A stretch of 41,869 nucleotides of DNA, from contig JACPIJ010000042.1 of assembly GCA_016188145.1 (NCBI GenBank), forward strand, positions 1-41,869, in the 5' to 3' direction. The stretch is from Candidatus Woesearchaeota archaeon. Lineage in GTDB: Archaea > Nanobdellota > Nanobdellia > Woesearchaeales > UBA10216. A program made the translations under genes and the position numbers. Positions 4,074-35,989 of the stretch are shown here, piece by piece; position 1 is the first letter of the stretch; the number at the start of each line of letters is the position of its first letter. Below the pieces are notes generated by a model. It had not been told where the DNA came from, did no database searches, and worked only from the letters and a program-made list of their open reading frames with translations.

Positions 4074-4154
4074 GTTTTCTGATTGACCTCTCCACATCGC
4101 CTATGGCGATGGGACCAGTCGTGCATGCACGACTTGGTTTACTAAAGAGGTCAT
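4074..4154 (+). repeat. Double-hairpin element copy 1, in the 5' leader of tRNA-Leu
   Basis: Outer stem GACCTCT (4085-4091)/AGAGGTC (4146-4152) encloses CC-A-CATCGCC/GGCGATG-GG and ACCA-GTCGTGC/GCACGAC-T-TGGT. TATA TTTATAAA at 4056-4063. Confidence 0.8.
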
Positions 4155-4292
4155 GCGGGGGTAGCAAAGCCCGGCTAAATGCGCAGGACTTAAGACGTTT
4201 TTCCGCCAGCGCTTTTGCGCCGCAGCGGAAAAGGGCTGTGATCCTGTGGGTTAGTCCCTTCGGGGGTTCAAATCCCCTCCCCATTAAGCGCA
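4155..4292 (+). tRNA. tRNA-Leu(TAA) with anticodon-loop intron (~4195-4240) and a 6-nt insertion in the 3' acceptor strand (possible pseudogene)
   Basis: GCGGGGG-TA-D arm, CAGGA-CT-TAA-G[intron]A-TCCTG, long variable arm, GGGGG-TTCAAAT-CCCCT, then CCCC[ATTAAG]CGC-A. Confidence 0.8.
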
Positions 4293-4330
4293 TCAAGCCA
4301 GATTCGGCTGTTAATCCTGAGAAAGTAAAC

Positions 4331-5068
4331 ATGGAAGCATACGCTAGGCTTGCCGCTGCTTATCAGGCGAGGACAGACGTCCTGCCTATTGCAGATCCTT
4401 TTGACGATTTTGCCAAAGTGCTTTCACTCAATCGTATTATGGATGTTGGATGCGGTCCTGGCAGGGATGTTGAAACAATCCTCCAGAAAGGGCACAAGGT
4501 TGTCGGGATTGATTTATCAAAAGAAATGCTGCAGCTAGCGCGCCAGCGGCTTGATGCATTTCTGCAGCAACAGGAAGATCCGCTTGGGTTTCTTCGCGCA
4601 AGGGGTTACGAGTCAAAGTCGATTGATGGTGTTTTGGATGCCATGTTTTTCCAAGCCACAATGCAGGGCATGCCTATTGGTCGGCCGGGATTTGAAGTGG
4701 AATCTTATGGCGGGCTTTGGGCTGTTACGAGTGTGCAGCACCTGCCTTATGCGCAGCTGCCAAAATTTTTAGCTAACGCATCAGCACTTCTCGCTCCAAA
4801 AGGGGTTTTGTATGTAAAGACACGGGCACCTTTCGACAATCAACCTAAAGATCTTCTTGAGTGTTTAGAGACGTCTTCAGAGAACCAAGGATTGCCATTC
4901 ACTCGTTTCTTTGCCTATTATGTGCCATCTGATTTCCTTAATAGCCTTGAGCAAGCTGGGTTTTCAGTTGTAAGGACGTCTAAAGGACCAGATGGCAGGA
5001 TTCAGTATCCTTCAACAAACAGTGGCGAACGTGGTTACAAATTCTGGGTCATTGCCCAAAAGAAATAA
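4331..5068 (+). CDS. Class I SAM-dependent methyltransferase
   Basis: Motif I IMDVGCGPGRD, acidic GIDLSKEML, QHLP...LAPKGVL. The start is placed at ATG 4331 because the longer ORF runs through the tRNA. Confidence 0.85.
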   Translation: MEAYARLAAAYQARTDVLPIADPFDDFAKVLSLNRIMDVGCGPGRDVETILQKGHKVVGIDLSKEMLQLARQRLDAFLQQQEDPLGFLRARGYESKSIDGVLDAMFFQATMQGMPIGRPGFEVESYGGLWAVTSVQHLPYAQLPKFLANASALLAPKGVLYVKTRAPFDNQPKDLLECLETSSENQGLPFTRFFAYYVPSDFLNSLEQAGFSVVRTSKGPDGRIQYPSTNSGERGYKFWVIAQKK

Positions 5069-5084
5069 GCAATGTGCTTGATTG

Positions 5085-5585
5085 TCACTGAATTATCTCA
5101 ACCCTGCTGTCGCCTTCTTGGATTCCGTATGCAGTGGTAAGGTTTCCGTTCACTTCGAGAACATATCTGATGGGCTGCCCTGAGTTGTAGAGGGGGCACG
5201 GGTCTGCATGGCAGGGCACGGCGTGGTGAATCTTAACCACTGTGAAGTCTTCAGAAATGAACACGATGTCCAGCGGAATCAGCGTGTTTTTCATCCAGAA
5301 GTTTTGCACTGACGTTGTTGGGAATATGAATAGCATGCCTTCGTTTTCGCCGAGGGATTTTCTGAACATGAGTCCGGTTTCTATCTCTGTTTCGTTGTTT
5401 GCAACTTCAGCGTTTATTATCAGTGATTCGGGATAAAAGGTTACAATTGCCCTGTCATTTGCTGTCTGGGTTGTGCCTGTGGCATCGCCAGATTTATGAA
5501 CCAGATTGGGAAGTCCAACAGCAAAAAAGAACAGGATGAAAAACAGCACCGATGCAGAGATAATAACTGTTTTGAAATCTGTCAT
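5085..5585 (-). CDS. DUF192 domain protein with N-terminal membrane anchor
   Basis: Signature GLMFRKSL..EGMLFIF..FWMKNTLIPLDIVF..YVLEVNG. Confidence 0.9.
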   Translation of the reverse strand: MTDFKTVIISASVLFFILFFFAVGLPNLVHKSGDATGTTQTANDRAIVTFYPESLIINAEVANNETEIETGLMFRKSLGENEGMLFIFPTTSVQNFWMKNTLIPLDIVFISEDFTVVKIHHAVPCHADPCPLYNSGQPIRYVLEVNGNLTTAYGIQEGDSRVEIIQ

Positions 5586-5648
5586 GAGCAGCCCTGCTGA
5601 CAAATACCTTTAAAAATCATTTGCATATGCGAGAATTTAGTAAGGTTG

Positions 5649-5725
5649 ATAAGGGCGCGAGCATTGCGAGTGCAAGTTGGCGGTAGCCAACTGCACAATC
5701 GGCGAAAGCCGATTTGTGCCCTTAT
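5649..5725 (+). repeat. Double-hairpin element copy 2, in the 5' leader of tRNA-Thr
   Basis: Outer stem ATAAGGGC/GCCCTTAT encloses GC-A-AGTTGGC/GCCAACT-GC and ACA-ATCGGC/GCCGAT-T-TGT. Same bulge pattern as the other copies. Confidence 0.75.
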
Positions 5726-5876
5726 GCCTCTGTAGCACAGCCAGTAGTTGCGCCACCTTGGTATGGCCTTTTAGGAAAATGTCACCGGAAAGGTGACATT
5801 CTTCGTCTCTAAGACGAAGAAAGGTCAATCAAAAACGAAAAGGTGGAGGTCCGGGGTGCAAATCCCCGCAGAGGCT
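5726..5876 (+). tRNA. tRNA-Thr(GGT) with 77-nt intron (~5764-5840)
   Basis: Acceptor GCCTCTG/CAGAGGC, anticodon stem CCACC/GGTGG with TT-GGT-A, T arm CGGGG-TGCAAAT-CCCCG. Confidence 0.85.
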
Positions 5877-5974
5877 TTATTAGCTCTAATTGAGAGCTCC
5901 GAGAACTTTAGTTTCTAACCCGTTAGCAGCGGCCACTTGTTGCACCTGATTAAGATACCTAGGCTGGCACACGA

Positions 5975-6364
5975 TCAGATCGGGCTTGCTACCAAGTCGC
6001 AAACCGTCATCAGTAAGGTGTTTTTTAGCTCATAGGGTAATTGTGCATCACTAACAAAATTTCCAATACGTGTTCCTGAAGAGTAAGCAACACTAAACAC
6101 GTGGTGGATTCTAGGCGGCAGTCGCTCAACTTCTTCCGCTACGCCCAGTTGTACACTAAATAAATGGAGAGAAGCTTGTACTTCTGCTGGTAAGCTTGGT
6201 GCTCTCCGCACGGCTATATACCATGAAACATCAGTATTTAAGCCGTAACGCTTTAATGTAAGAGCAGCTTCCTCAATTTCGATTTTATGTGCTTCGCTTC
6301 CTCTACCATCAGTTGCGTGCAAATCACCTGAATCAGTAACGATGATTGGTAAACTAGGTTTCAT
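5975..6364 (-). CDS. Hypothetical protein
   Basis: 129-aa ATG ORF with a TTTTATAAA box upstream on -; no motif recognised. Confidence 0.5.
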   Translation of the reverse strand: MKPSLPIIVTDSGDLHATDGRGSEAHKIEIEEAALTLKRYGLNTDVSWYIAVRRAPSLPAEVQASLHLFSVQLGVAEEVERLPPRIHHVFSVAYSSGTRIGNFVSDAQLPYELKNTLLMTVCDLVASPI

Positions 6365-6600
6365 GAATAAAGCGAATCAAACATAATTTATAAAACTATC
6401 CAAACAATTATTTTTGCCTCTCGGTTCAAATGGCAAAGAAAGATAAGAATATTCGTAAGCAGGATAGCAAATAATTAGGCAACTGTTCCATTAAAGCCCT
6501 GATTATGAACATTTTAGTATAGCTCCCAGCAGAGGCTTATAATTTTCTGAGCCGAAGCGAGTAAAATTTATAATCTGACTAGTGTTACTAACACGGAATA

Positions 6601-7089
6601 ATGACAAGTGACCCTGAGATGACAAGTGACCCTGAGGGCTTGGCAGAGCGAATAGAAAAGCAGTATTTGGCAATGCAGGAGCAGTTGCCAAGTAACGTGC
6701 AGAGCTGGAAGGCGAGCGCCAGCGGCATAATTCATGCGTTAACCGGTAGAGTCAGCATTGAATTGGTCGTCCCGTTGAATGGCGCTTTTAGTCGCCACAC
6801 TGAATTTGTAAACTTACTCTTTGTTAACAATGTTCCAATTACGGGCAGTTACCGAGAGGAGGTTTTTTATTCAAGTGAATATGATAAGGCAGGGTATTCC
6901 GGGGAGTCTGAACATGTAGGAAAGTATAGAATTGAAATTATGAGCAAGCATGGCGGTAGGAGCTTGGAAGGGCAAGTTATTCTGCGTGCCGAAAGAACAA
7001 AAGATTTCGGTCAGATGCATACCTTGGTGAAGGTTATTAAGGAGTACGTTGCTCTCTTTGGCCAAAAAGACGAGCCTAGTGACAGATAA
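6601..7089 (+). CDS. Hypothetical protein (first 18 bp duplicated in tandem)
   Basis: TTTATAA box at ~6568; ATGACAAGTGACCCTGAG x2 at 6601-6636. Confidence 0.55.
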   Translation: MTSDPEMTSDPEGLAERIEKQYLAMQEQLPSNVQSWKASASGIIHALTGRVSIELVVPLNGAFSRHTEFVNLLFVNNVPITGSYREEVFYSSEYDKAGYSGESEHVGKYRIEIMSKHGGRSLEGQVILRAERTKDFGQMHTLVKVIKEYVALFGQKDEPSDR

Positions 7090-7145
7090 GCAAAATCTTT
7101 TTATCTTCAGTGGCATTCCTCAACGCTTTAAACGTTCAGTAACAT

Positions 7146-9437
7146 GTGAGGGGTTTTTGCGTGGAAAAGGCAGGTTCATTGCTGGAGAGATATGCGCATG
7201 TCAGGACAGGTCAAGACCTGATTAATGCAGGAGTAATTCCTAAGAGCTCGGCAGCGTTTCTCGCATGGATTGCATTTTCACGCCTTTCAAATTTGAAAGC
7301 CGCGATTACGCAGTCTGTTGAGCCTGAGATGCTCGGAAGCTGGTTGCCTGCTTTTGCTCCTGTTATTAAAGAAGTTGGCGAAGTCATATCAAACCGGAAT
7401 GACATAGGTGAATACGCCAAGGTTGGCATGAGGGTTCGTGGCGATGTTGCAACTGCAGACAACCCTTCAGCAACGCTTGAAGGGACTATTAGAGATGCAG
7501 CACGCGGGTCTTACCTTGCGGTTGAGTGGGACCGTCCGATTATTAACAGCAGGTCAATTAAAGGGGTTAAGGAAGGTTACGGAAGTTATGTGTCTTACGA
7601 AAACGGACAAGTCCATCTCCTTGTCCCAGGAGGCAAGGTTGTAGACGGCTACCAGCTCGCAAATGGCGTGGTTGCTGATGAGAAGCTCGGACACAGGGTA
7701 AGGTTTGTAGAAGGCTACGAGTCAACTAGGCGTCGGCGGGATTCCCCGGATGCTGAGGTTAAGATTCCTAAAGGGGCCCTTGCAACGCTTACCAAGTATG
7801 ATGCCGAGAGGCAACGGGTAACAATTAGGCTTGATGAAAAGGTTGAAAGCTTGCGCTCTAACGAGCTTACGATTGGCATGGGTGAAGCCCTGACAAAATT
7901 GCAAGTGTCGAGCCTGGGCCAGATTGAGCCTAAGAGCCTTGAGCACGAAGTTATGAAGGCAGCTTTTTCCGGTTTCTTCCCAACGACTGTGCTCGACATT
8001 GGCACGGCAAGGGATATCGTTGTGGGGTTGCTGATGGGGAAAGACATGGTTTTTTACGGACCTCCAGGATCTGGCAAGAGCCAGGCCGCTAAGGACATCG
8101 TGGCCATCGCACAGCAGCAGGAGGTCATCTTCCACGTTGAAGGCTGCAAGGTCCAGTGCAACCCGTTCAGCCTGTTTGACCCCTCCTTCGCAAAAGTTGT
8201 GCCGGCCTGCCCGGAATGCAAGATAAATTATGATTCCGGATTTAAAGAAACTGGAAACTTTACGCCTCCCAAACCGCAAAAGGTTAAGGTAACCACAGCA
8301 AGATATGGGGAAGGAAAGGGCATTGAAATGTTGGAAGGCACGACAGGGCTTCAGCGCATGCACCTTGCGGGCTTTAAGATACCAAACCTTAGCGACGCAA
8401 ACATGGTGGACCTGGAAAACGAGTTTGACCCGCAGGGCTTTCATCCTGGCGTCTTGAGCAGGACCAACAATGGCATCCTGTTTGCCGAGGAGTTTGACAA
8501 GTGGCGGCCTCAGGCGTGGGAAAGCCTCTTGGCAGCTTCTCAGGACAGCGCAATCAAGCCTGACCAGCTCAGGTTCTCTTACCCGGCAAATGAGGCTTTT
8601 TTTGGTACAGCAAACGACCCTTCTGTTTTTCCAGAAACAATCAACGACCGTATGCTGCTGATAGCCATTGGGTATCCTCAAAACCGTGATGACAGCTACC
8701 TCATCACCAGGCGAGCTTACCACAAGGAAACAGCAATCCTTGAAGCCGTTCCGGTTGGAGACTCTCACACCCAGACCAACCAGGCGCTGAGGCAGGTGCC
8801 CATGCCAGTAATTGTCGAACGAGCAGTAGACGCATTTTATCTGAAATTCAGGAAAGAGTACACCGGACCGGGAAAGACCCAAATATCAGGCAGCAACCGT
8901 TCCAAGCTTGACGCGCTTGATGCGGGAAGGGCAGAGCTCTTTCTGGATTCAATATTTTTCGAAGCCACGCCCGCTACTGCAACTGCTGAATACGCGATGC
9001 GCGGCATTAGGTTTGCACTTGTTACCCGGCTTCAGGAAAGCAGCCCTGAAAAGGTAGCACAGGCAAAGTCGTCTTTGGACGAATACCTGCTGAAGGAGTT
9101 TCCAAAAGCCATGCACGAGGAAGAAGACACGTGGTGGTGCAGGGTGTTCCAGAACATGGCAATTAAGGAGACTCAAGCGCCAGGCATTGAAGGCGCTTTC
9201 CGCGCTGAAATAGCAAGTTACAAGGAAGACCCGAGGAAGGCATTGAAGCCTTTTCAAAAGGTGAAGGCTGCCAATGAAAGCCCTCAGAATCCTAGACTCC
9301 AAAATGCCTTATTGGACCACCCATTTATGGCTTACCTGTTTGGGGAGCAGCCTAAAATGTCAATGGTCAACGAAAGGCAGCTGACCGAGCTTGTGTCATA
9401 CCTGATGGCAAGTCAGGCAAGCTCATCCTGCAAGTAG
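7146..9437 (+). CDS. ChlI/MoxR-clade AAA+ ATPase with long N-terminal extension (SH3-like domains) and Cys insert
   Basis: Walker A GPPGSGKS; ChlI-like GCKVQCNP...CPEC insert; FHPGVLSRTNNGILFAEE (Walker B region); sensor-1 GTAN; arginine finger NDRM; sensor-2-like SNR. The start may be GTG 7161. Confidence 0.8.
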   Translation: MRGFCVEKAGSLLERYAHVRTGQDLINAGVIPKSSAAFLAWIAFSRLSNLKAAITQSVEPEMLGSWLPAFAPVIKEVGEVISNRNDIGEYAKVGMRVRGDVATADNPSATLEGTIRDAARGSYLAVEWDRPIINSRSIKGVKEGYGSYVSYENGQVHLLVPGGKVVDGYQLANGVVADEKLGHRVRFVEGYESTRRRRDSPDAEVKIPKGALATLTKYDAERQRVTIRLDEKVESLRSNELTIGMGEALTKLQVSSLGQIEPKSLEHEVMKAAFSGFFPTTVLDIGTARDIVVGLLMGKDMVFYGPPGSGKSQAAKDIVAIAQQQEVIFHVEGCKVQCNPFSLFDPSFAKVVPACPECKINYDSGFKETGNFTPPKPQKVKVTTARYGEGKGIEMLEGTTGLQRMHLAGFKIPNLSDANMVDLENEFDPQGFHPGVLSRTNNGILFAEEFDKWRPQAWESLLAASQDSAIKPDQLRFSYPANEAFFGTANDPSVFPETINDRMLLIAIGYPQNRDDSYLITRRAYHKETAILEAVPVGDSHTQTNQALRQVPMPVIVERAVDAFYLKFRKEYTGPGKTQISGSNRSKLDALDAGRAELFLDSIFFEATPATATAEYAMRGIRFALVTRLQESSPEKVAQAKSSLDEYLLKEFPKAMHEEEDTWWCRVFQNMAIKETQAPGIEGAFRAEIASYKEDPRKALKPFQKVKAANESPQNPRLQNALLDHPFMAYLFGEQPKMSMVNERQLTELVSYLMASQASSSCK

Positions 9438-9456
9438 GCTGCCATATGCGTGGTGA

Positions 9457-10224
9457 TTGGTGGTTATGGAAACAAACAGCGCCAGTAAAGGCATTCACGT
9501 TGACGACGTTGACGTAAAGCGATACGAGCGCGCAGATTGCACGCTGTTCAGAACACCGCCAGTTGATGTTTCTTCAGTTGGCAGCATTATTGAGAAAGCG
9601 CTTGTGCGCGCGTGGGAGCAAGGCGAATCTGCCGATTATGCGCTCGATTATTTGCTGCGTGAAGGCAGCATAACAGACAAGCTTGCCCAGCAGATAGCCC
9701 AAAGCCTCCAGTTTCAGAGGCAGCGCGCCTTGGAAACAGTAGATGAAGAAAAGGCAAGAGCCATTGGCCAGTACGCTGCTGAAAGGGAGCAGCTGTTGCA
9801 AAGCATAGAAGAAGCACTTGGAACCAGTATCCGGCAGAGGCAGGAAGGGCTGCAAAGGACTATGGGGGAAGCTCGCCAGCAAACAGCAGCGTACAGTGCA
9901 ACGCAGTTACAGCTGAATGAGCTGCGCACTCGTGTTAAATCGCAGATAAGCGAGCTTGGCGGGGTTCAAGGCTATAATGTGCTTAGCCGGATTAGGGAAG
10001 AGTTAATTCAAGACCAGGACCAAGGCCAGGAAGAAGGGCAAATAGGGCAAGTGAAAAAAGGCGAGGAAGGCAGGGATTACCGTAAGCGGCCAGTGCGCCA
10101 AAGGCAAGAGCTGGCCGGAAGCGCAAGCGACCTTGAGGAAATAATTGAGCGCGAGCCAACCAAACTTGGCCGCTTGTGGAAGACGCTGGTCAACGTGGTA
10201 ACTTTAAGGTACTTGAGGAAGTAG
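9457..10224 (+). CDS. Coiled-coil hypothetical protein with C-terminal amphipathic/basic helix
   Basis: E/Q/R/A-rich heptads; ends KLGRLWKTLVNVVTLRYLRK; tightly spaced in the operon. Confidence 0.75.
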   Translation: MVVMETNSASKGIHVDDVDVKRYERADCTLFRTPPVDVSSVGSIIEKALVRAWEQGESADYALDYLLREGSITDKLAQQIAQSLQFQRQRALETVDEEKARAIGQYAAEREQLLQSIEEALGTSIRQRQEGLQRTMGEARQQTAAYSATQLQLNELRTRVKSQISELGGVQGYNVLSRIREELIQDQDQGQEEGQIGQVKKGEEGRDYRKRPVRQRQELAGSASDLEEIIEREPTKLGRLWKTLVNVVTLRYLRK

Positions 10225-10260
10225 TGAAGTAGTGGAGTAGTGGAGTAGTGGAGTAGTGGA
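10221..10260 (+). repeat. Tandem repeat of 8-bp unit GTAGTG(G/A)A x5
   Basis: Directly visible; the first unit contains the TAG stop of the upstream gene. Confidence 0.9.
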
Positions 10261-10283
10261 ATGGTGATGGGTGGCTATAAAAA

Positions 10284-11660
10284 ATGACAGCAAGAAACGC
10301 TCAAAACTCTCCTGCTATTTTAACGCTTGAGGAGTTTACAGAAAGGTTTTCGAAGCGGTATCGGGCAGAGCAGTCCTTCCGCGAGATGGTGCACAGCTAC
10401 ATGAAGCTGTCCGGAATCAGGAAGGCGGCGCTTTCGGTGGCAAAGGCCCTTCACATTCCGTGGTATGGCACAGAAACAGGCAGGATAATCACGAATTATG
10501 CTACGATAATCTATGAAGGAATGTTCAAGCTGCAGAGGGTTGAAAGCGCTATTGGCGAATTTAAGCAGACAAGTGGGGTATTGGGAAGCCAGGCTCAGGC
10601 AGTAGGCAGACTTGAAACTGCAGTTCAGGAGGCTGAAAGTGAGCTCAGAGTTACTGAGGCAGAGCGGCGGGCAGCATTGCAGCAGGCTGACGAGTCGTAC
10701 CTTGCGAAGACAGAGGGGGAAGAGCAAGCCGCCCAGCAGGCAGCAGGGGAAGTAAGGAGAAAAACCGATGAGCAGGAAATCGTAAGGGGGAAGTTGAGGG
10801 AGTTTGTTGTTAATTCCCCACTCGTCAAAATGTCAGAACATGGCACACTTACCTTTGACGAGGAAAGAATTATGAGGCGGCTTGAAGAGGTTGCTTTAGA
10901 CGAAATAGTTGAAGGAATTGAAAGCGAAGGCTCCACAGGTTTTATGGCAAAAATGAGGGCTTCTTATGATGGGCTCATAGCTTACTGGGCAGAGGTTGAA
11001 GACTTCTCCGAACTGCCAAACGTTGACTGGATACAGTCAGCCATCCTTTCAAGGACAAAAGGCTACAGGGTTCCGACATTCCCTTACTGGGTAGCTGGGA
11101 AACCCGAGGATAAAGCCAAAGCCAGGGTCTCTGTTGACACTGCCATAAGCCTTGACGTCAGCGGCAGCATGAGGGAGAATAACCGCATGGTTGCCGCAAG
11201 AAAAACAGCCACGGCAATGGTTGCACTGATGAGGCGCCTAAACTCTCGTAACGAAACATTCCTTTCTGTTTTCAGTTACGAGATTAACCCAATAACAACC
11301 AAAGACCTGAGGACAATCGTGCCTAATGGGGGTACAAGGACAGAATACGCGCTTGATTGGATGATACAAACGCTGAAAGACAGGGGGCCAAGCCTTGCCT
11401 ACCTTATAACCGATGGCGCCCCAAACTACCTCGATGCTACTGTAAAGGCGGCAAGGCGGTTTCAGGATCATCCCTACATAATGCTGAGAATCTTCCTTAT
11501 AGACGGGGACAAGGAAACAGAAGAAAATGTGCGAAAATTCGGCAGTGCTGCCGGGCTGCAAACCAAAGTCGTGCCCGTCAGGAACTACCAGCTTGGCGGC
11601 AAGGTTATTGCAGACATGTCGAAAGCCATTGGGGAGATGCGCGGAATAGCGGAGTTTTGA
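10284..11660 (+). CDS. vWA (MIDAS) domain protein with N-terminal coiled coil
   Basis: MIDAS DVSGS, GGT, LITDG. Typical partner of ChlI/MoxR ATPases. Confidence 0.88.
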   Translation: MTARNAQNSPAILTLEEFTERFSKRYRAEQSFREMVHSYMKLSGIRKAALSVAKALHIPWYGTETGRIITNYATIIYEGMFKLQRVESAIGEFKQTSGVLGSQAQAVGRLETAVQEAESELRVTEAERRAALQQADESYLAKTEGEEQAAQQAAGEVRRKTDEQEIVRGKLREFVVNSPLVKMSEHGTLTFDEERIMRRLEEVALDEIVEGIESEGSTGFMAKMRASYDGLIAYWAEVEDFSELPNVDWIQSAILSRTKGYRVPTFPYWVAGKPEDKAKARVSVDTAISLDVSGSMRENNRMVAARKTATAMVALMRRLNSRNETFLSVFSYEINPITTKDLRTIVPNGGTRTEYALDWMIQTLKDRGPSLAYLITDGAPNYLDATVKAARRFQDHPYIMLRIFLIDGDKETEENVRKFGSAAGLQTKVVPVRNYQLGGKVIADMSKAIGEMRGIAEF

Positions 11661-17429: not shown

Positions 17430-17596
17430 ACTATATCTGGGCGAGCTATAAATCCGCGCAAGTGTTTTCCAAACCAAATTATAAAATCCATCAACTTTTA
17501 TAAAATCAGCTTTTTTTATAAGTTTTATAATATATAAGCCAAAGTTATTTATGAGTGTAAGCCTACATGCCCCTTTAGTTGAATAGTTTCACATTT

Positions 17597-17647
17597 CCCA
17601 AGTCGCTACTGCGACTGGGCCCAATCGGCTGCTGCGATTTGGGTTTC
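17597..17647 (+). repeat. Double-hairpin element copy 3, in the 5' UTR of the 17722 gene
   Basis: CCCAAGTCGC-tact-GCGACTGGG-CCCAATCG-gctgctg-CGATTTGGG-TTTC; near-identical to copies at 22714 and 35936 except in the loops. Confidence 0.88.
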
Positions 17648-17721
17648 TTTAGCAACAGCAATAACGGCGAATTAGGCGAATTGGCAGGGCTGTTATTGTC
17701 GCAGGGGAGGCGGTATGGGTG

Positions 17722-18075
17722 ATGTTTGAGGACTACGATACAGAATTCGGGTACTCGTTCAGCGACTTAAGGCGGGACTACAGCAGGAAGGCCTATGCGG
17801 TGCCTGACTACGACGCGCACAGCCTGGAGGAGATTGAGCTGAGCCTTGCAACCAGCAAATACGCCGAGCGCGGCGAGTGCCTTGAGCATTCAAAATTCCT
17901 TGAAGACCTGCAGAAGCGGCTTTCAATGATTGCCCTCGCTGAAGAGCGCGAGGGAATAATGAACTGGGAGCTTCGCGAGGTCCTTGAAAAGGTCAGGCGG
18001 CTAACAAGGCAGCTTGCGGCAGTGATGGAGAAGTTGCCTGAAGTGGTTGTGTATAAGACGCCAAAAAAGGAATGA
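17722..18075 (+). CDS. Hypothetical helical protein
   Basis: GGGGAGG Shine-Dalgarno-like site upstream; 117-aa ORF. Confidence 0.65.
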   Translation: MFEDYDTEFGYSFSDLRRDYSRKAYAVPDYDAHSLEEIELSLATSKYAERGECLEHSKFLEDLQKRLSMIALAEEREGIMNWELREVLEKVRRLTRQLAAVMEKLPEVVVYKTPKKE

Positions 18076-18946: not shown

Positions 18947-19139
18947 CTTAACTTTTTTACCTAAAAAAGTCAATCAAAAACGTGTCTTATGCAAAAAGTT
19001 TATAATGTTCTATTTGTTCTTTCTTCTGAAATTTAGGAAAATTTTATCAGGGCATAGTTACGAAAACAGCCCTTAATGGCAAAAAGGTCGGGAAAATGGC
19101 AAAAAAAGGCTGGATAAACCGGGAAGGAGGGCGGGCAAC

Positions 19140-22489: not shown

Positions 22490-22541
22490 TATTGCGATTT
22501 TAAGAAGAACGCTGGGACAGGGTGGCGGTTTTGAAAGTTAA

Positions 22542-22695
22542 CGCCGCGGCAGGGACTTTCAAGCCTTTGCACAACTCATTTTTGGTTGAGCTTTTGCCGT
22601 GCAAAAGGTCATTTGAACCCCGAAGCCCTTGCGGGCACCAGTTTGCTTTTCTGAAAGTTCAAGACTGGCGCACTACCAGGTTATGCGACCGCGGC
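22542..22695 (-). tRNA. tRNA-Ser(TGA) with two introns: 14 nt at 37/38 (22644-22657) and 56 nt at 59/60 (22556-22611)
   Basis: Acceptor GCCGCGG/CCGCGGC-G; CCAGT-CT-TGA-A[..]A-ACTGG; variable arm GCCC-GCAA-GGGC; T-loop BHB TTCA/TGAA with AA|T and AG|T bulges. Confidence 0.92.
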
Positions 22696-22806
22696 ATGAC
22701 CCCTTTTGCGAAACCCAAATCGCTGCTGCGATTGGGCCCAGTCGACTGCTGTCGACTTGGGAGCGGTCAATCGGAAAACCGCCTCTCGAAGAAGGTCAGT
22801 CAAAAA
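22696..22806 (-). repeat. Double-hairpin element copy 4 (core 22714-22761) in the 5' leader of tRNA-Ser, with tail motifs
   Basis: On -: GTTTTCCGATTGACCGCT-CCCAAGTCGAC-agca-GTCGACTGGG-CCCAATCGC-agca-GCGATTTGGG-TTTCGCAAAAGGGGTC-AT-tRNA. The flanks match those of the tRNA-Leu leader. Confidence 0.88.
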
Positions 22807-25062: not shown

Positions 25063-25650
25063 ATGAAGTTTAGGAACGACGATAACATTCGCAGCAGCCG
25101 CGATTTAACCGACGCGGTAACAAAGGAGCACCCAAAACACTTCATTGCCGTTGCCGAGCAGCAGATAATGGCAATGCACAGCCACAAGGATGGCTCGGCT
25201 GTCGAGCTTCACCAGGTCGGCTCGCGGGAATTCATACAACAGTCGCAGCAATCAGCAATGGCAAGCCTGGAAGGAAAGCTTGGTGGCAGCGAGGGGCACA
25301 ATGAAAAGCAGTTCTGGCAGAAAGAAAACGAAAGCCCTTTTGCAGCAGCGAAGATAGAGTATGAAAGGAAAGGGCAGCAACCTGGACAGCAAGCCATATA
25401 CGGCGCCCAGCATGACCTTTTAGCAAAAGGTCAATCAAAAACGGAAACAGCCATGATGGGCTGCAACTGCGGAGCTGAATGGACAGTAACAGGGCAAAGC
25501 ACAAAAGCACAGGGCGCAGAAGGCGTAAAGGTTGAGCAGTACGGCCATGGCATGGCAGGACAGCCCGGGGGCTACAGGGTTTCAGGGGCAGGCGGTGAAA
25601 AGGCAGAGTACAGAACAGGAGCGGGGCAGCAGCAGGATTATAAAGGATAA
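25063..25650 (+). CDS. Hypothetical protein (Q/G-rich, one CNCG motif)
   Basis: 195-aa ORF directly following the zinc-finger gene. Confidence 0.65.
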   Translation: MKFRNDDNIRSSRDLTDAVTKEHPKHFIAVAEQQIMAMHSHKDGSAVELHQVGSREFIQQSQQSAMASLEGKLGGSEGHNEKQFWQKENESPFAAAKIEYERKGQQPGQQAIYGAQHDLLAKGQSKTETAMMGCNCGAEWTVTGQSTKAQGAEGVKVEQYGHGMAGQPGGYRVSGAGGEKAEYRTGAGQQQDYKG

Positions 25651-29565: not shown

Positions 29566-29621
29566 AACTGCCGCTGAGTGGCAGCTATAGCTACTTTGTA
29601 AATAGCTTGAGAGATTTTGAA

Positions 29622-31553
29622 ATGGCAACAGCAAAGAAGGGTAAGGGCGCAGCAGCCACAATTAAGATTACTTTTCCTGACGGCGCTTCCAAGGAGTTTC
29701 CGAAAGGCACGACAGCGCTTGACATTGCCAAAACCATTAGCAGAGGGTTGGCTGAGGAGGCCGTTGCTGCGAAGGTTAATGGCATTCTTTACGACCTGAC
29801 AAGGCCGATTGACTCTGACGCAGCATTGCAGCTGCTCAAGTTTGACTCTGTCGAGGGAAAGAGCGTTTTCTGGCACTCCGCTGCACATGTCATGGCACAG
29901 GCAGTCACGAGGCTGTTCCCCTTTGCGAAGCTCACAATCGGGCCTGTGTTTGAAAGCGGATTCTACTACGACATCGAGCATGACCCCTTCAAGCCTGAAG
30001 ATTTAGAAAGGATAGAAAAGGAAATGGCAGCTGTAGTTGCCGAAAAACTCGACATAAAAAGACGCGTGCTGACAAAGGCAGAGGCGCTCAAGGTTTTCAA
30101 GGACAACCTGTACAAGATTGAAATAATAAACGAGGATGTAAAAGAAGGCGAGGAAATTTCAGCTTACCAGCAGGGCGACTTTATCGACCTGTGCCACGGT
30201 CCTCACGTGCCGAACACGAGCTGCGTTAAGGCATTCAAGCTCACGAAAATCTCTGGGGCTTACTGGAGGGGGGACGCGAAAAACAAGCCTCTGCAGCGGC
30301 TTTACGGAATAGCGTTTCCTTCAAAGAAGCAGCTGGACGATCACTTCGCAATGCTGCAGGAAGCTGAAAAGAGGGACCACCGAAAGCTTGGGAAGGAGCT
30401 TGAGCTTTTCATGTTCCACGACTGGTCTCCAGGGAGCGCGTTCTTCCTGCCAAAAGGAGCGATAATCTACAACGAGCTCGTCAGTTTTGTTAGGGAAGAA
30501 TACCGCAAGAGGGACTATAAGGAGGTCATAACGCCCCAGCTGTTCAACAAGGCACTCTGGGAGTCGTCAGGGCACTGGCAGCACTTCAAGGAGAACATGT
30601 TTGTCCTGAAGGTTGATGAGGACGAGTTCGCCCTGAAGCCCATGAACTGCCCAAGCCACGTGCTGATTTTCAAGAACAGGACAAGGAGCTACAGGGAGCT
30701 GCCGCTGAGGATTGCTGATTTCTGTGCGTTGCACAGGAACGAGCTCAGGGGCGTGCTTGCAGGCCTGACACGGGTCAGGAAGTTCGCGCAGGACGATGCG
30801 CACGTCTTCTGCGCAAAAGAGCAGATAAGCTCGGAAATAATGCAGCTTCTGGACTTCGTAAAGTTCGTTTTCGTTGATACGCTGAAGTTTGAGTTCAGGA
30901 CAAAGCTGAGCACAAGGCCTGAAAAGTTCATGGGGGACATAAAGCTGTGGGACCTGGCCGAGAAGGCGCTTGAAGAAGCCCTTAAGGCAAGCAAGCTGAA
31001 ATACGAGGTAAAGCCCGGTGAGGGGGCGTTTTACGGCCCGAAGATAGACTTTGACGTGAGAGACGCGATTGGAAGGGACTGGCAGCTAGCCACAATCCAG
31101 CTGGACTTCCAGATGCCCCTCAAAATGGAAGCAGAATACGAAGGCCAAGACGGGAAGAGGCACCCTGTTGTGATGATTCACAGAGCAATCCTTGGCAGCC
31201 TGGAAAGGCTGATTGGCGTGCTTACAGAGCACTACGCAGGCAAATTCCCGCTGTGGCTGAGCCCTGTGCAGGTCAGGATTCTGACAGTAGCTGATAGGTT
31301 CAATGACTACGCCCGCAAGCTGCAGCAGCGGTATTTTGATGCTGGAATAAGGGTTGAAGTTGACGACAAGGCAGAAAGCGTGCCCTACAAGGTAAGGGAA
31401 GCTGAATTGGACAAGGTTAACTACATAATCGTTGTTGGTGAGAAAGAAGTTGCTGCGAATACGGTGACTGTGAGGAAAGGCAAGGAGCAGTTCACTCTGG
31501 ATGCGGATAATTTCATGCGGCAGGTGGTGGAAGAGGTAGAAAAAAGAGCTTAA
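29622..31553 (+). CDS. thrS: Threonyl-tRNA synthetase (bacterial/eukaryote-type with TGS and editing domains)
   Basis: HSAAH, DLCHGPH, RDHRKLG, KPMNCP, HRNE, GAFYGPKID, MIHRAILGSLER. Confidence 0.97.
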   Translation: MATAKKGKGAAATIKITFPDGASKEFPKGTTALDIAKTISRGLAEEAVAAKVNGILYDLTRPIDSDAALQLLKFDSVEGKSVFWHSAAHVMAQAVTRLFPFAKLTIGPVFESGFYYDIEHDPFKPEDLERIEKEMAAVVAEKLDIKRRVLTKAEALKVFKDNLYKIEIINEDVKEGEEISAYQQGDFIDLCHGPHVPNTSCVKAFKLTKISGAYWRGDAKNKPLQRLYGIAFPSKKQLDDHFAMLQEAEKRDHRKLGKELELFMFHDWSPGSAFFLPKGAIIYNELVSFVREEYRKRDYKEVITPQLFNKALWESSGHWQHFKENMFVLKVDEDEFALKPMNCPSHVLIFKNRTRSYRELPLRIADFCALHRNELRGVLAGLTRVRKFAQDDAHVFCAKEQISSEIMQLLDFVKFVFVDTLKFEFRTKLSTRPEKFMGDIKLWDLAEKALEEALKASKLKYEVKPGEGAFYGPKIDFDVRDAIGRDWQLATIQLDFQMPLKMEAEYEGQDGKRHPVVMIHRAILGSLERLIGVLTEHYAGKFPLWLSPVQVRILTVADRFNDYARKLQQRYFDAGIRVEVDDKAESVPYKVREAELDKVNYIIVVGEKEVAANTVTVRKGKEQFTLDADNFMRQVVEEVEKRA

Positions 31554-31568
31554 AAACAGTGGTGTAAA

Positions 31569-31706
31569 ATGCAATTTAAAACAAAAATAGGGAAAAAGTG
31601 GGAAGTAATAATCCCAAAGGCAATTCTAGATGATTTTGGAGTAAGCCCGGGGGAGGAAATAATTATGATTTATGAAGAAAATAAGCTGATAATAAGGAAA
31701 CCCTAA
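31569..31706 (+). CDS. AbrB/MazE/SpoVT-family small DNA-binding protein (below the ORF-track cutoff)
   Basis: MQFKTKIGKKWEVIIPKAILDDFGVSPGEEIIMIYEENKLIIRKP; GGTGGTG-like site upstream. Confidence 0.75.
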   Translation: MQFKTKIGKKWEVIIPKAILDDFGVSPGEEIIMIYEENKLIIRKP

Positions 31707-31766
31707 CACTCTTTAAAAACAGGTAGGTTTAAATATTAGCGTGCAGCGCCATACCAGAGAACAAAT

Positions 31767-31961
31767 ATGGGACAGCAGGAAGTAAGCGATTTTTTAAAAA
31801 AGCACAGGGCAAAGTGGTTCACTTCTAAGGAGATTGCCAAAAACCTTAAGGTGTCAACAGGCTCTGTAATAAACAACCTTTCAAAGCTCAGGAAGAGCAA
31901 GCAGGTGCTGTTCAAAAAAGCAGGGCGAGCCAACCAGTACATTTACAAGTATAAGGCATAA
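31767..31961 (+). CDS. Small winged-HTH protein
   Basis: FTSKEIAKNLKVSTGSVINNLSKLRK; TTTAAATA upstream. Confidence 0.8.
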   Translation: MGQQEVSDFLKKHRAKWFTSKEIAKNLKVSTGSVINNLSKLRKSKQVLFKKAGRANQYIYKYKA

Positions 31962-31992
31962 ATAAGGCACAAAACTCAATGCTGATGCGGGC

Positions 31993-32277
31993 ATGATAGT
32001 GAGGTTCTCAGCTTCAAACATCGTGGCAATGATTTTCTTCATCCCGCTTCTCCTGCTACTGGGCCTGATAATGGCTTTTCTTGTTCCGCTGCTTGCGCTA
32101 ATAATAGCAGCTGCCTCGATTTTATTCTTGGGCCTGTACACCTTTGCAAAGATTGGCTTCGTTAGGAAGCAGCAGGGTCGCATTGGCGGCAGCAACAGCG
32201 ATAGCGGAGAGAATTCTTCAGAATCCCATAAAAAGAAGAAATCCACGCTGGAAGTGAAGGATTACAAGGTCAGGTAA
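31993..32277 (+). CDS. Small membrane protein
   Basis: Long hydrophobic N-half, charged tail ending LEVKDYKVR. Confidence 0.65.
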   Translation: MIVRFSASNIVAMIFFIPLLLLLGLIMAFLVPLLALIIAAASILFLGLYTFAKIGFVRKQQGRIGGSNSDSGENSSESHKKKKSTLEVKDYKVR

Positions 32278-32319
32278 GCAGAAATACTCCTAAGGCAAAG
32301 AATAAAAAGGAGAGATTCT

Positions 32320-32853
32320 TTGCCACATCCCATGGAGCAGGTAGTGCTTGTTGACAGGCAGGACAAAGAACTTGGTTCTGAGGAGAAGCTTGAAGCCCAT
32401 AGACAGGGAAAATTGCACAGGGCGTTCTCCATCTACGTTTTAAACAAGCAGGATAAGCTGATGCTGCAAAAAAGGCATAGCGCAAAATACCATTCCGGTG
32501 GCCTCTGGACCAACACGTGCTGCAGCCACCCCAGGCCTGGCGAGACAGTATTGGAAGCAGCCCACCGTAGGCTTAAGGAAGAGATGGGCTTTAGCTGCGA
32601 GCTGAAAGAAAAGTTCAGCTTTGTTTACAATGTAAAGCTTGACAAGGGCCTGACAGAGCACGAGTATCTGCATATCTTCATTGGAAGATTTGATGGCGAG
32701 CCTATCCTAAACCCGGAAGAAGCTGAAGGCTGGAAGTGGATGGACTTCAAAGAACTCCACAAGGATATGAAGAAAAACCCGCAGGTTTACACTAAATGGT
32801 TTCGGCTAACAACAGACAGGCTGGCACCGTATCTTGAGTCATATTCAAGGTAA
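32320..32853 (+). CDS. idi: Isopentenyl-diphosphate delta-isomerase, type 1 (Nudix fold)
   Basis: LHRAFS, WTNTCCSHP, RRLKEEMG, EHEYLHIF, PEEA, YTKWF. Confidence 0.95.
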   Translation: MPHPMEQVVLVDRQDKELGSEEKLEAHRQGKLHRAFSIYVLNKQDKLMLQKRHSAKYHSGGLWTNTCCSHPRPGETVLEAAHRRLKEEMGFSCELKEKFSFVYNVKLDKGLTEHEYLHIFIGRFDGEPILNPEEAEGWKWMDFKELHKDMKKNPQVYTKWFRLTTDRLAPYLESYSR

Positions 32854-32858
32854 TCCAT

Positions 32859-33914
32859 ATGGACTTTTTTGAAAACCCGCACAGGGAACGCATTGAGAAA
32901 GAGCTCAGGTCATTCCTTCCAGCGGAGCTGACTGCTAATTGGGCAGAAAAGGCTGTTGGAAAAGCAAAGTGGAAGCAGGATGTTGAGGCGCTGACAAAAG
33001 CCATCAGCGAGCCAGTCTGGGACTTCCTGAGCCGGGGAGGAAAGAGGTGGAGGCCTATGCTGATGTTGATGTGCTGCGAGGCAGTAGGAGGAAAACCTTC
33101 TGAGACTCTGCCATTCGCAGTAATCCCTGAGCTTATCCACAACGGCTCGCTCATTGTTGATGACATAGAGGATAACTCGGATTTGAGAAGGGGCAAGCCC
33201 GTGCTTCACAGGATTTTCGGGGTAGACATTGCTGTCAATGCCGGCAATGTGCTTTATTTTCTGCCACTTATTGCCATAAGAGACTCTGACCTGCCTGAAA
33301 AAACAAAAAGCAAGGCTTATGAAACAATAATCACACAGCTTCTGAAATGCCATTTGGGGCAGGCCACTGACATATACTGGCATAGCGGTAAAGCACAGAA
33401 TATTCCGACAGAAAAAGAATACCTTCAGATGTGTGCAAATAAGACGGGGTCAGTAGCTTGCATGGCAGCAAAGCTCGGCGCATTGCTGGGCGGAGGAAGC
33501 GAGAAGCAAATCGGAGCCCTTGGAGAGTTTGCAGAGGCAGCAGGAGTGGCTTTCCAGATTAAAGACGATATCCTTAATGTCGAAAGCAGCGAAGGAATAG
33601 GCAAAGAATTTGGCGATGACATCAGTGAAGGAAAAAGAACGCTGATGGTTATCCATACGCTAAATACTGCCCATGCTTCAGCTACTGAGAAGAAAAGGCT
33701 TCTTGAAATATTAAACTTGCGCACGAAAGACAAAAGCCTCATCGCAGAGGCTATTGCGGTAATAAAGAAGCATGGCTCTATAGATTACGCAAGGAAAACT
33801 GCCCTGCAGCTTCTGGAAGAAGCGTGGCAGGAAGCAGACAAAGTGTTGCCAGAATCAGAAGTTAAGAACCAGATGAAAGGGTTCGCGCAGTTGCTGATAA
33901 ACCGTTCTGTCTAA
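32859..33914 (+). CDS. trans-Polyprenyl diphosphate synthase (GGPP synthase-like)
   Basis: GGKRWRP, VDDIEDNSDLRRGKP, GQATD, KTG, FQIKDDILN, GDDISEGKRT. Confidence 0.93.
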   Translation: MDFFENPHRERIEKELRSFLPAELTANWAEKAVGKAKWKQDVEALTKAISEPVWDFLSRGGKRWRPMLMLMCCEAVGGKPSETLPFAVIPELIHNGSLIVDDIEDNSDLRRGKPVLHRIFGVDIAVNAGNVLYFLPLIAIRDSDLPEKTKSKAYETIITQLLKCHLGQATDIYWHSGKAQNIPTEKEYLQMCANKTGSVACMAAKLGALLGGGSEKQIGALGEFAEAAGVAFQIKDDILNVESSEGIGKEFGDDISEGKRTLMVIHTLNTAHASATEKKRLLEILNLRTKDKSLIAEAIAVIKKHGSIDYARKTALQLLEEAWQEADKVLPESEVKNQMKGFAQLLINRSV

Positions 33915-33929
33915 TTTACTTTTTTACTT

Positions 33930-34661
33930 TCATCTGCCGAATCGTCTGTGCCTTTGCTTGTATTCATCAATAACCTGAATGAGGTCTTCCTTCTCGAACT
34001 CCGGCCACATCTTCTCAAGAAAGAACAGCTCTGAATAGGACGACTGGTAAAGCAGAAAGCCGCTCAACCGCTTTTCCCCCCCTGTCCTTATTATCAGGTC
34101 GGGGTCATCGGGCATGTAAAGGTATTTTTTGAGCGTATCGTCATTAACAGCAGCAGTGGATAGTTTGCCTTTCTGCACATCCGTAGCCATCCTTTTCGCT
34201 GCATCGGCTATCTCCTGCCTGCCGCCGTAAGCCATGCAGAAATTGACAATAAGGCCGCTGTTCTTTGCAGTTTTTTCCATTAGCTCGCGCATCAGCTTCA
34301 TTATGTCTCTAGGGAACATCACAAGCCTGCCGAGGAACTTTATCCGTATTCCTAATTTATTGCCTTTTTCCTGCAGCCGCTTGTCTGTTCTGAGCTGCTC
34401 GCAGGCCTCCCTGAAGAGCTTCATGATGTAGTCAAACTCCTCCTTAGGCCTGTTGAAGTTGTCAACAGAAAAGGCGTACAGCGTGAGTTCCTTTATCCCA
34501 AGCTCGCTGCACCAGTCCAGCAGCTTCTCTACCTTCTTCTTGCCCCACTCGTGCCCCCTCCAGGGCTTCAGCATCAGCCTTTTGGCAAACCTTCGGTTGC
34601 CGTCAAGGATTATTGCAACATGTCCAGGGCCCTCGTTTACTGAAGCATTTTGTCCCGCCAT
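33930..34661 (-). CDS. uppS: cis-Prenyltransferase (undecaprenyl/polyprenyl diphosphate synthase)
   Basis: HVAIILDGNRR, YAFSVDNFNRP, YGGRQEI, DLIIRTGGEKRLSGFLLYQ, RRFGR. Confidence 0.95.
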   Translation of the reverse strand: MAGQNASVNEGPGHVAIILDGNRRFAKRLMLKPWRGHEWGKKKVEKLLDWCSELGIKELTLYAFSVDNFNRPKEEFDYIMKLFREACEQLRTDKRLQEKGNKLGIRIKFLGRLVMFPRDIMKLMRELMEKTAKNSGLIVNFCMAYGGRQEIADAAKRMATDVQKGKLSTAAVNDDTLKKYLYMPDDPDLIIRTGGEKRLSGFLLYQSSYSELFFLEKMWPEFEKEDLIQVIDEYKQRHRRFGR

Positions 34662-34834
34662 TTCGCTTTTGTTGTAGTTTCCACAGGGGATTTATAAATA
34701 TTTTTGTCTACAGGCAGTACAAACCGGTTCGTGTTCCGAAACTCCACAGCAGCAGCTGCGGCAATAAGATTTAAATAATACTGCTGGTGCTGTATTTCCA
34801 ATAAGCTCATGGTGAAAAAGATGGTGAAGATTAC

Positions 34835-35503
34835 ATGGTGAAGATTGCCCCTTCAATACTTTCTGCGGACTTCGGCAAGCTGGCTGACGAGATAAGGCGG
34901 GTTGAGAAATACGTTGACATGCTTCACATTGACGTCATGGACGGGCATTTCGTGCCAAACATAACATTTGGGCCTCCTGTTGTGAGGAGCATTAGAGTTG
35001 TTACGAAGCTGCCTTTTGACGTGCATCTCATGGTGGAAAACCCGGACAACTACGTTGAGCAATTCATTGACGCAGGCGCAAACCTCATTACTGTGCATGC
35101 AGAGACTGCAGTGCACCTCAACAGGACAATAAGCAACATCAGGAAAAAAGGCGCAAAAGTCGGAGTTGCATTGAACCCTTCCACGCCCCTCACCGCGCTT
35201 GACCACGTATTGCCCGACATTGACATGGTTCTCATCATGACCGTAAACCCCGGCTTCGGGGGCCAGTCCTTCATAAAAAGCATGCTGCCGAAGATTAAGG
35301 CGCTAAGGCAGATGATTGACAGGGCAAAGCTTGACGTCGAGATAGAGGTTGATGGCGGGATAAACGGCGACACCGCAAGGCAGGTCGTAGCTGCCGGCGC
35401 TGACATACTCGTGGCAGGCTCATACATCTACGAAAGCACAGACCCTCTTACGGCAATTAACAGCCTTAGAGGAACAACCTCATCGGCAACAAAGAAAAGA
35501 TAG
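34835..35503 (+). CDS. rpe: Ribulose-phosphate 3-epimerase
   Basis: IAPSILSADF, HIDVMDGHFVPN, DVHLM, MTVNPGFGGQ, EVDGGIN. Confidence 0.97.
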   Translation: MVKIAPSILSADFGKLADEIRRVEKYVDMLHIDVMDGHFVPNITFGPPVVRSIRVVTKLPFDVHLMVENPDNYVEQFIDAGANLITVHAETAVHLNRTISNIRKKGAKVGVALNPSTPLTALDHVLPDIDMVLIMTVNPGFGGQSFIKSMLPKIKALRQMIDRAKLDVEIEVDGGINGDTARQVVAAGADILVAGSYIYESTDPLTAINSLRGTTSSATKKR

Positions 35504-35671
35504 AAGAGCTTATTCTGCTTTTCTTGCAATCTGCACATTTATAACAGCAGCTCATTATAGCTGCAGCAACGAGAGGAGAATGTTATTTACGGAAATCTAG
35601 CTCCTCTCCTATAAATAATAAAAATAAAATAAATATAAAAGAAAAAGTTTGAAGTTTTCCTATTTTTCTTT

Positions 35672-35902
35672 TTACCTTCCCCGTGCCATCTTGGCCCTGG
35701 AGATGTCGCCCTGCTTGTCGATGAAGTACAGGTATCCCTTTTCCTTCCTGACTCCGACCTTGGCAACTACTTCCTGCTTCTGGGCTCCTTTCTTCTTTCC
35801 GCCCCTGACCATCTTGGCCCTGGCAACATTCCCTCTCTTGTCCACAAAATAGAGGTAGCCGTTCTGCTTCCTAACGCCTGCTTTAGCAACTTTCTGCGCC
35901 AT
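35672..35902 (-). CDS. Small basic protein made of two ~32-aa repeats
   Basis: VAK.GVRK..GYLYF.DK.G...RAKM twice; GGGGGTG Shine-Dalgarno 6 nt before ATG. Confidence 0.85.
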   Translation of the reverse strand: MAQKVAKAGVRKQNGYLYFVDKRGNVARAKMVRGGKKKGAQKQEVVAKVGVRKEKGYLYFIDKQGDISRAKMARGR

Positions 35903-35935
35903 CCCTTACACCCCCGATTTTTTATTTTATTGTTG

Positions 35936-35989
35936 CCCAAGTCGCCGCTGCGACTGAGGCCCAATCGGCACTACCGATTTGGGTTTCGC
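35936..35989. repeat. Double-hairpin element copy 5, in the 5' UTR of the small basic protein gene
   Basis: CCCAAGTCGC-cgct-GCGACTGAGG-CCCAATCGG-cacta-CCGATTTGGG-TTTCGC. Confidence 0.88.

Follow-up and report, generated by a model that had tools for sequence, protein, structure and literature searches.

The window analyzed here, a stretch of 41,869 nt corresponding to contig C65 of a Candidatus Woesearchaeota archaeon metagenome-assembled genome (MAG; 1.18 Mb, 81 contigs, 84.6% complete), carries five copies of a double-hairpin element, which we refer to as DH. We conclude, with a probability of roughly 0.8, that DH is a mobile, non-autonomous DNA element belonging to a single family-level lineage of Woesearchaeota (DPANN) from groundwater and not a conserved RNA leader signal. 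DH is precisely present or absent at orthologous sites, it leaves no target duplication, its target is an A-run, and copies are nested. It survives only where it does little harm, that is, in spacers, around or within tRNA genes (leaders, introns, and trailers), or in frame at protein positions that tolerate it, and it is frequently found in 'leaders' because a second, genus-limited hairpin repeat, the outer repeat, sits at tRNA 5′ ends.

Each DH is 46 to 53 bp long and consists of two abutting hairpins. When folded, all five window cores have an extrahelical A on the 5′ arm of the first hairpin and an extrahelical T on the 3′ arm of the second, as described in an earlier note made from this DNA alone, and all five lie where that note had placed them. 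The foot of the hairpin is conserved, with NCC, one extrahelical base, and NNTCG paired with CGANN-GGN, and the distal stem and loop vary freely; the form CCC-A-NNTCG...CGANN-GGG is kept across genera. DH can be described as two joined units, the second of them reverse-complemented, that do not pair with each other. With a second hairpin that is a reverse-complemented version of the first type, both DNA strands fold alike, and a covariance model trained on six copies scores both strands, in agreement with the pseudo-palindrome that the earlier note had recognized. The stem covariation reported there is also borne out: in an alignment of 87 rows, which represent both strands of about 45 places and were fitted to the model so that the figures lean toward structure, 99.5% of 1,357 foot cells pair, with double changes in 12 of the 16 pairs (144 cells) compared to five single-sided changes, and none of 500 shuffles reached the observed statistic. 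The pairs in 50 folded copies are 643 G-C, 300 A-T, and 10 G-T (10/953; ~1%), and this near absence of wobble pairs, together with the strand symmetry, indicates a DNA palindrome and not a one-strand RNA.

A model search for further copies and a comparison with Rfam had both been suggested by the earlier note, and the search was productive. The model yields 83 matches over both strands of the genome, counted as 48 distinct places, with 44 at E < 0.01; in the window it recovers all five copies on both strands and finds no sixth. A strict scan for Watson-Crick twin hairpins identifies 37 in the whole genome, including three unrelated AT-rich ones, and 0, 1, 1, 1, and 0 in five simulated genomes used as a control. 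Searching for single units with a regular expression adds 13 outside our list of 50 copies, mostly from a diverged subfamily, and we saw one clear solitary single hairpin (C47:19739). The copies are spread over nearly all of the larger contigs, and near-identical copies, differing at only one to three of 48 positions, are found at unlinked loci; for example, one of the window copies (copy 4, 22714-22761) differs at one of 48 positions from C68:97-144. At three places (C23:337-464, C31:7495-7577, and C56:19991-20250) a DH lies in the loop of another DH that is itself within an outer repeat, and at the last of these several DH units stand in a row. Paired DHs are seen on contig C78, and the genes between them were considered as a candidate transposase and rejected, since by eye they are TFS-like and signal-peptidase-like host genes.

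Relatives were compared at three distances, with 10 congeners (among them G007 and G008; the MAGs are 67 to 92% complete), 15 genomes from elsewhere in the family (other genera), and 35 from elsewhere in the order (other families). The model matches DH in all 10 congeners, with 5 (G007) to 88 matches each, in five of the 15 genomes from other genera, and in one of the 35 from other families. In a scan with the strict pattern of one genome per species across 185,579 species, we found 76 stretches, of which 65 are titled Candidatus Woesearchaeota archaeon and 11 belong to 'uncultured Methanosarcinales' MAGs; the related DH-bearing MAGs titled Candidatus Woesearchaeota archaeon are from groundwater, and viral contigs gave no match to the strict pattern. 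As the earlier note expected, Rfam has no match to DH at gathering score (at E ≤ 1 there are only a tRNA and two chance hits elsewhere), and we found no description of the family in the literature searched.

None of the five window copies, whose coordinates are given without a strand, is conserved across the genus. Copy 1 (4091-4138) lies in the loop of an outer repeat before tRNA-Leu(TAA). The orthologous leader in G007 is the outer hairpin alone, lacking DH, G008 has another DH upstream of the outer hairpin, and in G006 the outer stem is a different one and holds a third type of DH, such that four genomes present four different states. Copy 2 (5670-5719) is a diverged subtype within a second type of leader hairpin before a tRNA gene at 5726; G008 has an otherwise identical leader hairpin without DH, and G006 and G010 have no leader hairpin. 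Copy 3 (17597-17643) occupies a spacer or probable 5′ UTR before a gene starting near 17716-17725, and it is missing from the syntenic spacer of G007, where the alignment is poor. Copy 4 is in the loop of an outer repeat before a minus-strand tRNA-Ser(TGA), and the G006 orthologue keeps the outer hairpin with exactly the DH piece missing. Copy 5 (35936-35983) is intergenic, with minus-strand genes on both sides; it lies ~120 nt downstream of the one ending at 36103 and upstream of the TATA-like run of the one starting at 35902, and it is shared at the same site with G005 and absent in G008, G003, and G007. Copy 5 therefore lies outside any predicted leader, and the earlier statement that every copy is situated between a TATA box and its gene does not hold; nor is placement in 5′ leaders a rule of the family, since copies are also found in coding sequence, in tRNA introns, and in 3′ trailers.

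Contigs from four sequencing runs (DNA groundwater metagenomes from two studies) show variation at two of the same places. In three of the four runs, contigs diverge exactly at 17596|17597, the edge of copy 3, and at copy 4 contigs in runs X1 to X3 leave out 22707-22761; two of these runs, X1 and X3, also have a loose end of 10 letters after 22713 that reads on into what lies beyond 22761, although this is weak evidence.

DH is positioned directly 3′ of an A-run or, equivalently, 5′ of a T-run; of 113 distinct copies, 103 have AA just 5′ or TT just 3′ (background, 0.17). The A-run is present already at empty sites, and it is therefore the target and not part of the element. No target duplication is seen at three precise empty/filled junctions. 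At C31:2405-2452, a gene for a metallo-beta-lactamase-fold (MBL-fold) protein contains an exact, in-frame DH insertion of 48 nt (16 amino acids), and exactly those 16 codons are missing from all four orthologues found (4/4), with no duplication at the junction. Of the open reading frames (ORFs) that span a DH, eight were compared with Pfam; four are above cut-off, one has only sub-threshold winged helix-turn-helix (wHTH) hits, and three have no match. The four supported genes code for an FAD-binding oxidoreductase, a CCA-adding enzyme, a PAP2 phosphatase, and the MBL-fold protein, and their DHs are 48 or 51 nt long and free of stops. Long open frames span 13 of 50 DH copies and none spans the other 37, although 87.5% of the genome is in long open frames, which points to purifying selection against most genic insertions. 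For the 25 copies with lengths not divisible by three, a permissive test for the consequences of removal finds some joinable frame in six; removal of the other 19 joins no reading frames, and these are therefore intergenic.

The outer repeat has the consensus (G)TTTTTTGAT, a 10-bp stem of the type TGACCTTTTT, a loop of 3 to 5 nt, AAAAAGGTCA, and then TGC, and its stem is rich in T5/A5. There are 38 exact-pattern copies in the genome; a loose scan gave 169 hits, of which many are chance 7-bp stems, and only the clear 10-bp copies and the exact-pattern count are used here. Eight of the 10 congeners have it, the number of copies per congener ranging from 0 to 50; a search of 50 other genomes found no copy, nor did a reversed control. 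The flank GTTTTCYGATTGACC...GGTCAT that the earlier note had seen to be shared by the leaders of tRNA-Leu and tRNA-Ser does exist, but it is this separate hairpin repeat and not a part of DH. The outer repeat lies directly before base 1 at about a dozen of 33 tRNAs called by ARAGORN, and it also occurs in reverse at tRNA 3′ ends, within tRNA introns, and away from tRNAs, where the ATG that follows opens no long ORF. Where a TATA box is present, its spacing would put the likely transcription start at the GAT/TGACC junction, and the repeat may function as a promoter-proximal or 5′ hairpin, as a terminator, or it may be purely selfish. DH is in or at the T-run of an outer repeat in at least 12 cases, and it is this landing that generates an apparent 'three-helix leader'.

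In the window, the outer repeat hosting copy 1 (4075-4153, plus strand) begins with the T-run and GAT at 4075-4083 and has arms at 4084-4091 and 4146-4153, followed by T|G in which the G is position +1 of the tRNA; this type has many DH-free occurrences in the genome. The repeat hosting copy 4 (22696-22778, minus strand) ends in AT just before base 1 of tRNA-Ser (22695). The second type of leader hairpin, which hosts copy 2 (5644-5725, plus strand), has GGTTGAT, an 8-bp outer stem, and AT before tRNA base 1, and besides the G008 orthologue it is found without DH before a tRNA-Ser at C18:24077. The outer stems and the 'AT' immediately before tRNA base 1 that had been reported earlier are thus correct for the copies at 4091, 5670, and 22714. 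A DH-free outer repeat at 25413-25442 (minus strand) has a very high summed contig depth of 657-1124, consistent with a repeat, and further outer-repeat places are at 22794-22806 and 18968-18980 (both minus strand).

ARAGORN in its default mode calls no tRNA in the window because all three of the tRNA genes there have introns. The tRNA-Leu(TAA) gene (4155-4286, plus strand) has one intron and scores 27.7 bits with the Rfam tRNA model, compared to a gathering score of 29; with introns allowed, ARAGORN places it at 4154-4286. The second gene (5726-5876, plus strand) has an intron of ~85 nt; ARAGORN calls it tRNA-Phe(GAA) with a 77-nt intron, and by eye a CCACC/GGTGG stem leaves the anticodon GGT (Thr). 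The tRNA-Ser(TGA) gene (22542-22695, minus strand) is not called by ARAGORN and was read by eye, with an acceptor, an anticodon loop CTTGAA, a long variable arm, and two introns, of which one is at the canonical position and the other interrupts the T-loop (22556-22611); the block at 22507-22696 is conserved in G008. DH is present in the leaders of four tRNA genes in the genome, the three in the window and a tRNA-Arg on C17, and is also found inside a tRNA-Ser intron at C18:23946.

The intron of the tRNA at 5726 (5754-5839) is a reverse outer-repeat copy carrying a different twin-hairpin cargo (stems CTTCGTC and AATGTCACC), and this region is 95% identical to intergenic C18:15649-15731, with many hits in relatives; its orthologues in G008, G006, and G010 have other introns in number, place, and content. 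T-loop introns (59/60) made of related hairpin modules are seen by eye in tRNA-Ser(TGA) at 22556-22611 (minus strand) and in a tRNA-Gly(GCC) at C4:13594-13880, and the tRNA-Gly(GCC) on C4 appears by eye to have one DH in each of two introns. At C74:1575-1626 (L029:201-252), a DH lies exactly between T-arm-like halves (GCGGGTTCAAA / TCCCGC), without a bulge-helix-bulge. No complete tRNA could be parsed around C74:1575, and no matching 5′ half was found; possible readings are a pseudogene, a split tRNA, and a DH that serves as an intron.

With respect to how tRNA leaders are removed, the earlier note had suggested that genes for RNase P or HARP be sought. We found nothing convincing for archaeal RNase P RNA in the source genome, where the best match (C59:590-636) scores 18 bits compared to a gathering score of 84, and the p30 subunit was not found there; a PIN_5-family fragment (48.5 bits) is present at a contig edge (C26:6-146). 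The protein-only RNase P HARP belongs to the PIN_5 group, and leader removal may be protein-only in the source genome. Elsewhere in the window, a gene at 7146-9437 codes for a 763-amino acid ATPase-like protein for which none of the 10 congeners has an orthologue at E ≤ 1e-50, although synteny in the flank is retained further downstream; from the sequence comparison the gene looks like a strain-specific cassette.

We propose that DH would move as folded single-stranded DNA, with an enzyme supplied in trans that reads the hairpin foot and the extrahelical base in the style of IS200/IS605, REP, or attC. The stem covariation would then reflect selection on DH to stay recognizable, and not a host RNA function. 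The outer repeat, with its T-run, GAT, T5/A5-rich 10-bp stem, and TGC at many tRNA 5′ ends, provides the preferred A/T-run target.

Several points weigh against DH being a mobile element. No mobilizing enzyme was found in searches of the source genome and its relatives. PF01797 (Y1_Tnp, the family of IS200/IS605 TnpA and RAYT) has no match in nine of the 10 congeners, including the six that are richest in DH (G001, G008, G006, G009, G004, and G005, with 41 to 88 DH matches). In the source genome, the TnpB-type zinc ribbon (PF07282) has only matches that are below cut-off, and the IS110 DEDD family has none above it. There are two tyrosine recombinases, of which the non-Xer one on C56 has no orthologue in the 25 family genomes; it is strain specific and does not track DH, and was rejected as the driver. 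Copy 2 has no A/T-run flank. The presence/absence pattern, from which we infer transposition, could partly reflect precise loss. The strongly conserved foot and the clustering at tRNA genes could indicate a host use, as a protein-binding site or an RNA stabilizer, which could coexist with mobility. Finally, all of the genomes are incomplete MAGs, and repeats break assemblies.

The earlier note had drawn a two-way inference, in which the family was either a REP/BIME-like unit spread by an HUH (RAYT/TnpA-like) enzyme or a conserved RNA leader. The dispersed REP/BIME-like unit is supported in kind, given the high copy number, the restriction to a lineage, the presence/absence, the nesting, and the in-frame copies; the HUH driver and the RNA leader are not supported. 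We consider it unlikely that DH belongs to the REP/REPIN or PATE type and depends for its movement specifically on a Y1 HUH transposase encoded in the genome, either RAYT or IS200/IS605 TnpA. Hairpins with an extrahelical base, the lack of duplication, and a fixed flanking oligonucleotide are hallmarks of single-strand HUH transposition (PMC3119063, PMC2817692), and the source genome does code for one Y1_Tnp-like ORF (C18:28456-28950; L049:1396-1893, minus strand), of 165 amino acids and with an HVH motif, beside a tRNA-Ser. However, it scores a weak 34.4 bits, it is not flanked by DH, and the hairpins that flank it are unrelated. Homologues of this ORF are found in only seven of the 25 family genomes. 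The best of them shares 65% identity, contains a TGA in frame, and comes from a different genus (G019), pointing to an IS200-like remnant that moves horizontally. PF01797 is moreover found in just one of the 10 congeners, none of the six DH-richest among them, in MAGs of 67 to 92% completeness; the DH hairpins are inverted, not direct as in IS605 ends, and have no GTAG or CGTC tag. We regard it as very improbable that DH is a conserved structured RNA in 5′ leaders for pre-tRNA or mRNA processing or stability, even though four tRNA genes carry it in their leaders, its covariation is very strong, and the lack of an Rfam match means that such an RNA would be new. Orthologous leaders either lack DH or have a different DH elsewhere, and DH is found in either orientation and also within coding sequence, tRNA introns, and one 3′ trailer; copy 5 lies outside any predicted transcript leader, G-U accounts for 1% of the pairs, and the number of matches among congeners ranges from 5 to 88.

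We consider it improbable that DH is a domesticated DNA site serving the host, for instance by binding a chromatin protein, a topoisomerase, or a partition protein, as has been put forward for bacterial REP/BIME; mobility would then be secondary. The foot is conserved across genera, the two-fold symmetry would suit a dimeric binder, and nearly all of the larger contigs carry copies; yet copy number varies widely among close relatives (with five matches in G007), no tested site is conserved across the genus, there are insertions in genes, and no candidate binding protein was identified. It is extremely improbable that DH is a mobile mini-intron cut from RNA by the splicing endonuclease or another nuclease, making its insertions harmless. 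This would fit the DHs in tRNA introns (the tRNA-Ser at C18:23946 and both introns of the tRNA-Gly on C4), the C74:1575-1626 copy between T-arm-like halves where this lineage has T-loop introns, and the fast turnover of tRNA introns seen among orthologues of the tRNA at 5726. By inspection of the C74 and coding copies, however, there is no archaeal bulge-helix-bulge (two 3-nt bulges and a 4-bp helix), and DH has instead single-base bulges and exon flanks that are unpaired. Moreover, the four Pfam-supported genic copies have lengths of 48 or 51 nt and contain no stops, as translated sequence should, and the 19 of 25 non-multiple-of-three copies that join no frames on removal are intergenic. We also speculate, with considerable doubt, that the nested hairpin repeats are mobile as DNA and disposable as RNA, becoming or enlarging leaders and canonical and T-loop introns that processing enzymes remove; the C74 copy would then be an intron by itself, and the driver would belong outside the transposase families that were searched. 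If true, this would offer a concrete route, by DNA transposition, through which archaeal tRNA introns are gained and rapidly replaced.

Considered as a mobile element, DH illustrates how a covarying, strand-symmetric structure before tRNAs can look like a new leader RNA and yet be mobile DNA, and a tempting false lead is removed. DH and the outer repeat document a system in DPANN archaea that is similar to REPs and to Rickettsia palindromic elements (RPEs), and together they reach ~100 copies per Mb in a 1.2-Mb genome. Their insertion sites include tRNA leaders and introns as well as genuine enzyme genes, among them that of the CCA-adding enzyme, and the pattern suggests a possible connection with how quickly tRNA introns turn over in these genomes. 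As a RAYT or IS605 gene, the driver of the bacterial and haloarchaeal counterparts, was not found with DH, the question is raised of what moves these repeats. Repeats of this kind break MAG assemblies and mislead gene and tRNA callers, and they can serve as strain markers.

DH is a small palindromic mobile repeat that resembles REP/REPIN, RPE, and PATE/SMR elements, yet departs from the defining features of REP/RAYT, PATE, and MITE (miniature inverted-repeat transposable element) families. REPs are short imperfect palindromes of high copy number, mostly extragenic and often in inverted pairs, lineage specific, and with occasional genic copies (PMC3733652, PMC3116915, PMC2817692). DH is likewise a short imperfect palindrome that is present in high copy number (48 places) and mainly extragenic. 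However, it ends in NCC...GGN without the GTAG or CGTC tag used as a criterion for REPs (PMC3733652), no RAYT gene, which in REP systems is inherited vertically and mostly has the repeats on its flanks, was found to be co-inherited with it, and its host is archaeal. Furthermore, DH units do not pair together, and DH is almost without G-T pairs, whereas G-T pairing is stressed in the account of REP stems (PMC3733652). 

RPEs are palindromic repeats found in frame in genes that stay open (PMC3733652). DH is similarly found in frame in four Pfam-supported genes, and for the MBL-fold gene the insertion is absent from the orthologues (4/4). RPEs, which are bacterial elements of ~100-150 bp, are longer than DH and have no sequence relation to it. 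The attC sites of integrons offer a further analogy, as folded single-strand hairpins that are read by their structure and extrahelical bases, not their sequence, and that have a conserved foot and a variable center. DH may be comparable in having extrahelical bases, a conserved foot, and a variable center, but it has no cassette array or integron-type integrase context, and the additional tyrosine recombinase is strain specific.

Among archaeal elements, the PATEs and SMR-A of Haloquadratum walsbyi have no transposase gene, can be as short as 52 bp, are based on palindromes, and make no target duplication (PMC3119063). PATEs have a short targeting oligonucleotide at one end, and SMR-A insert into the palindromes of other mobile elements by a mobilization that is termed 'enigmatic' (PMC3119063). 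DH too has no target duplication and adjoins a fixed short oligonucleotide (AA/TT in 103/113). The hosts belong to different phyla; PATE palindromes are direct copies that correspond to the ends of IS605-type transposons which those genomes also contain, whereas DH units are inverted, and no parent IS605-type element (tnpA/tnpB ends) and no TnpB above cut-off were found in the source genome. Classical MITEs have the terminal inverted repeats of a parent IS and a target duplication, and DH has neither a duplication nor a parent IS that we could find. There is a likeness to MITEs in density: one survey places 'a Woesearchaea genome' among the archaea that are densest in conserved MITEs, at 105 per Mb (PMC11602168), and DH and the outer repeat reach a similar density of small non-coding repeats.

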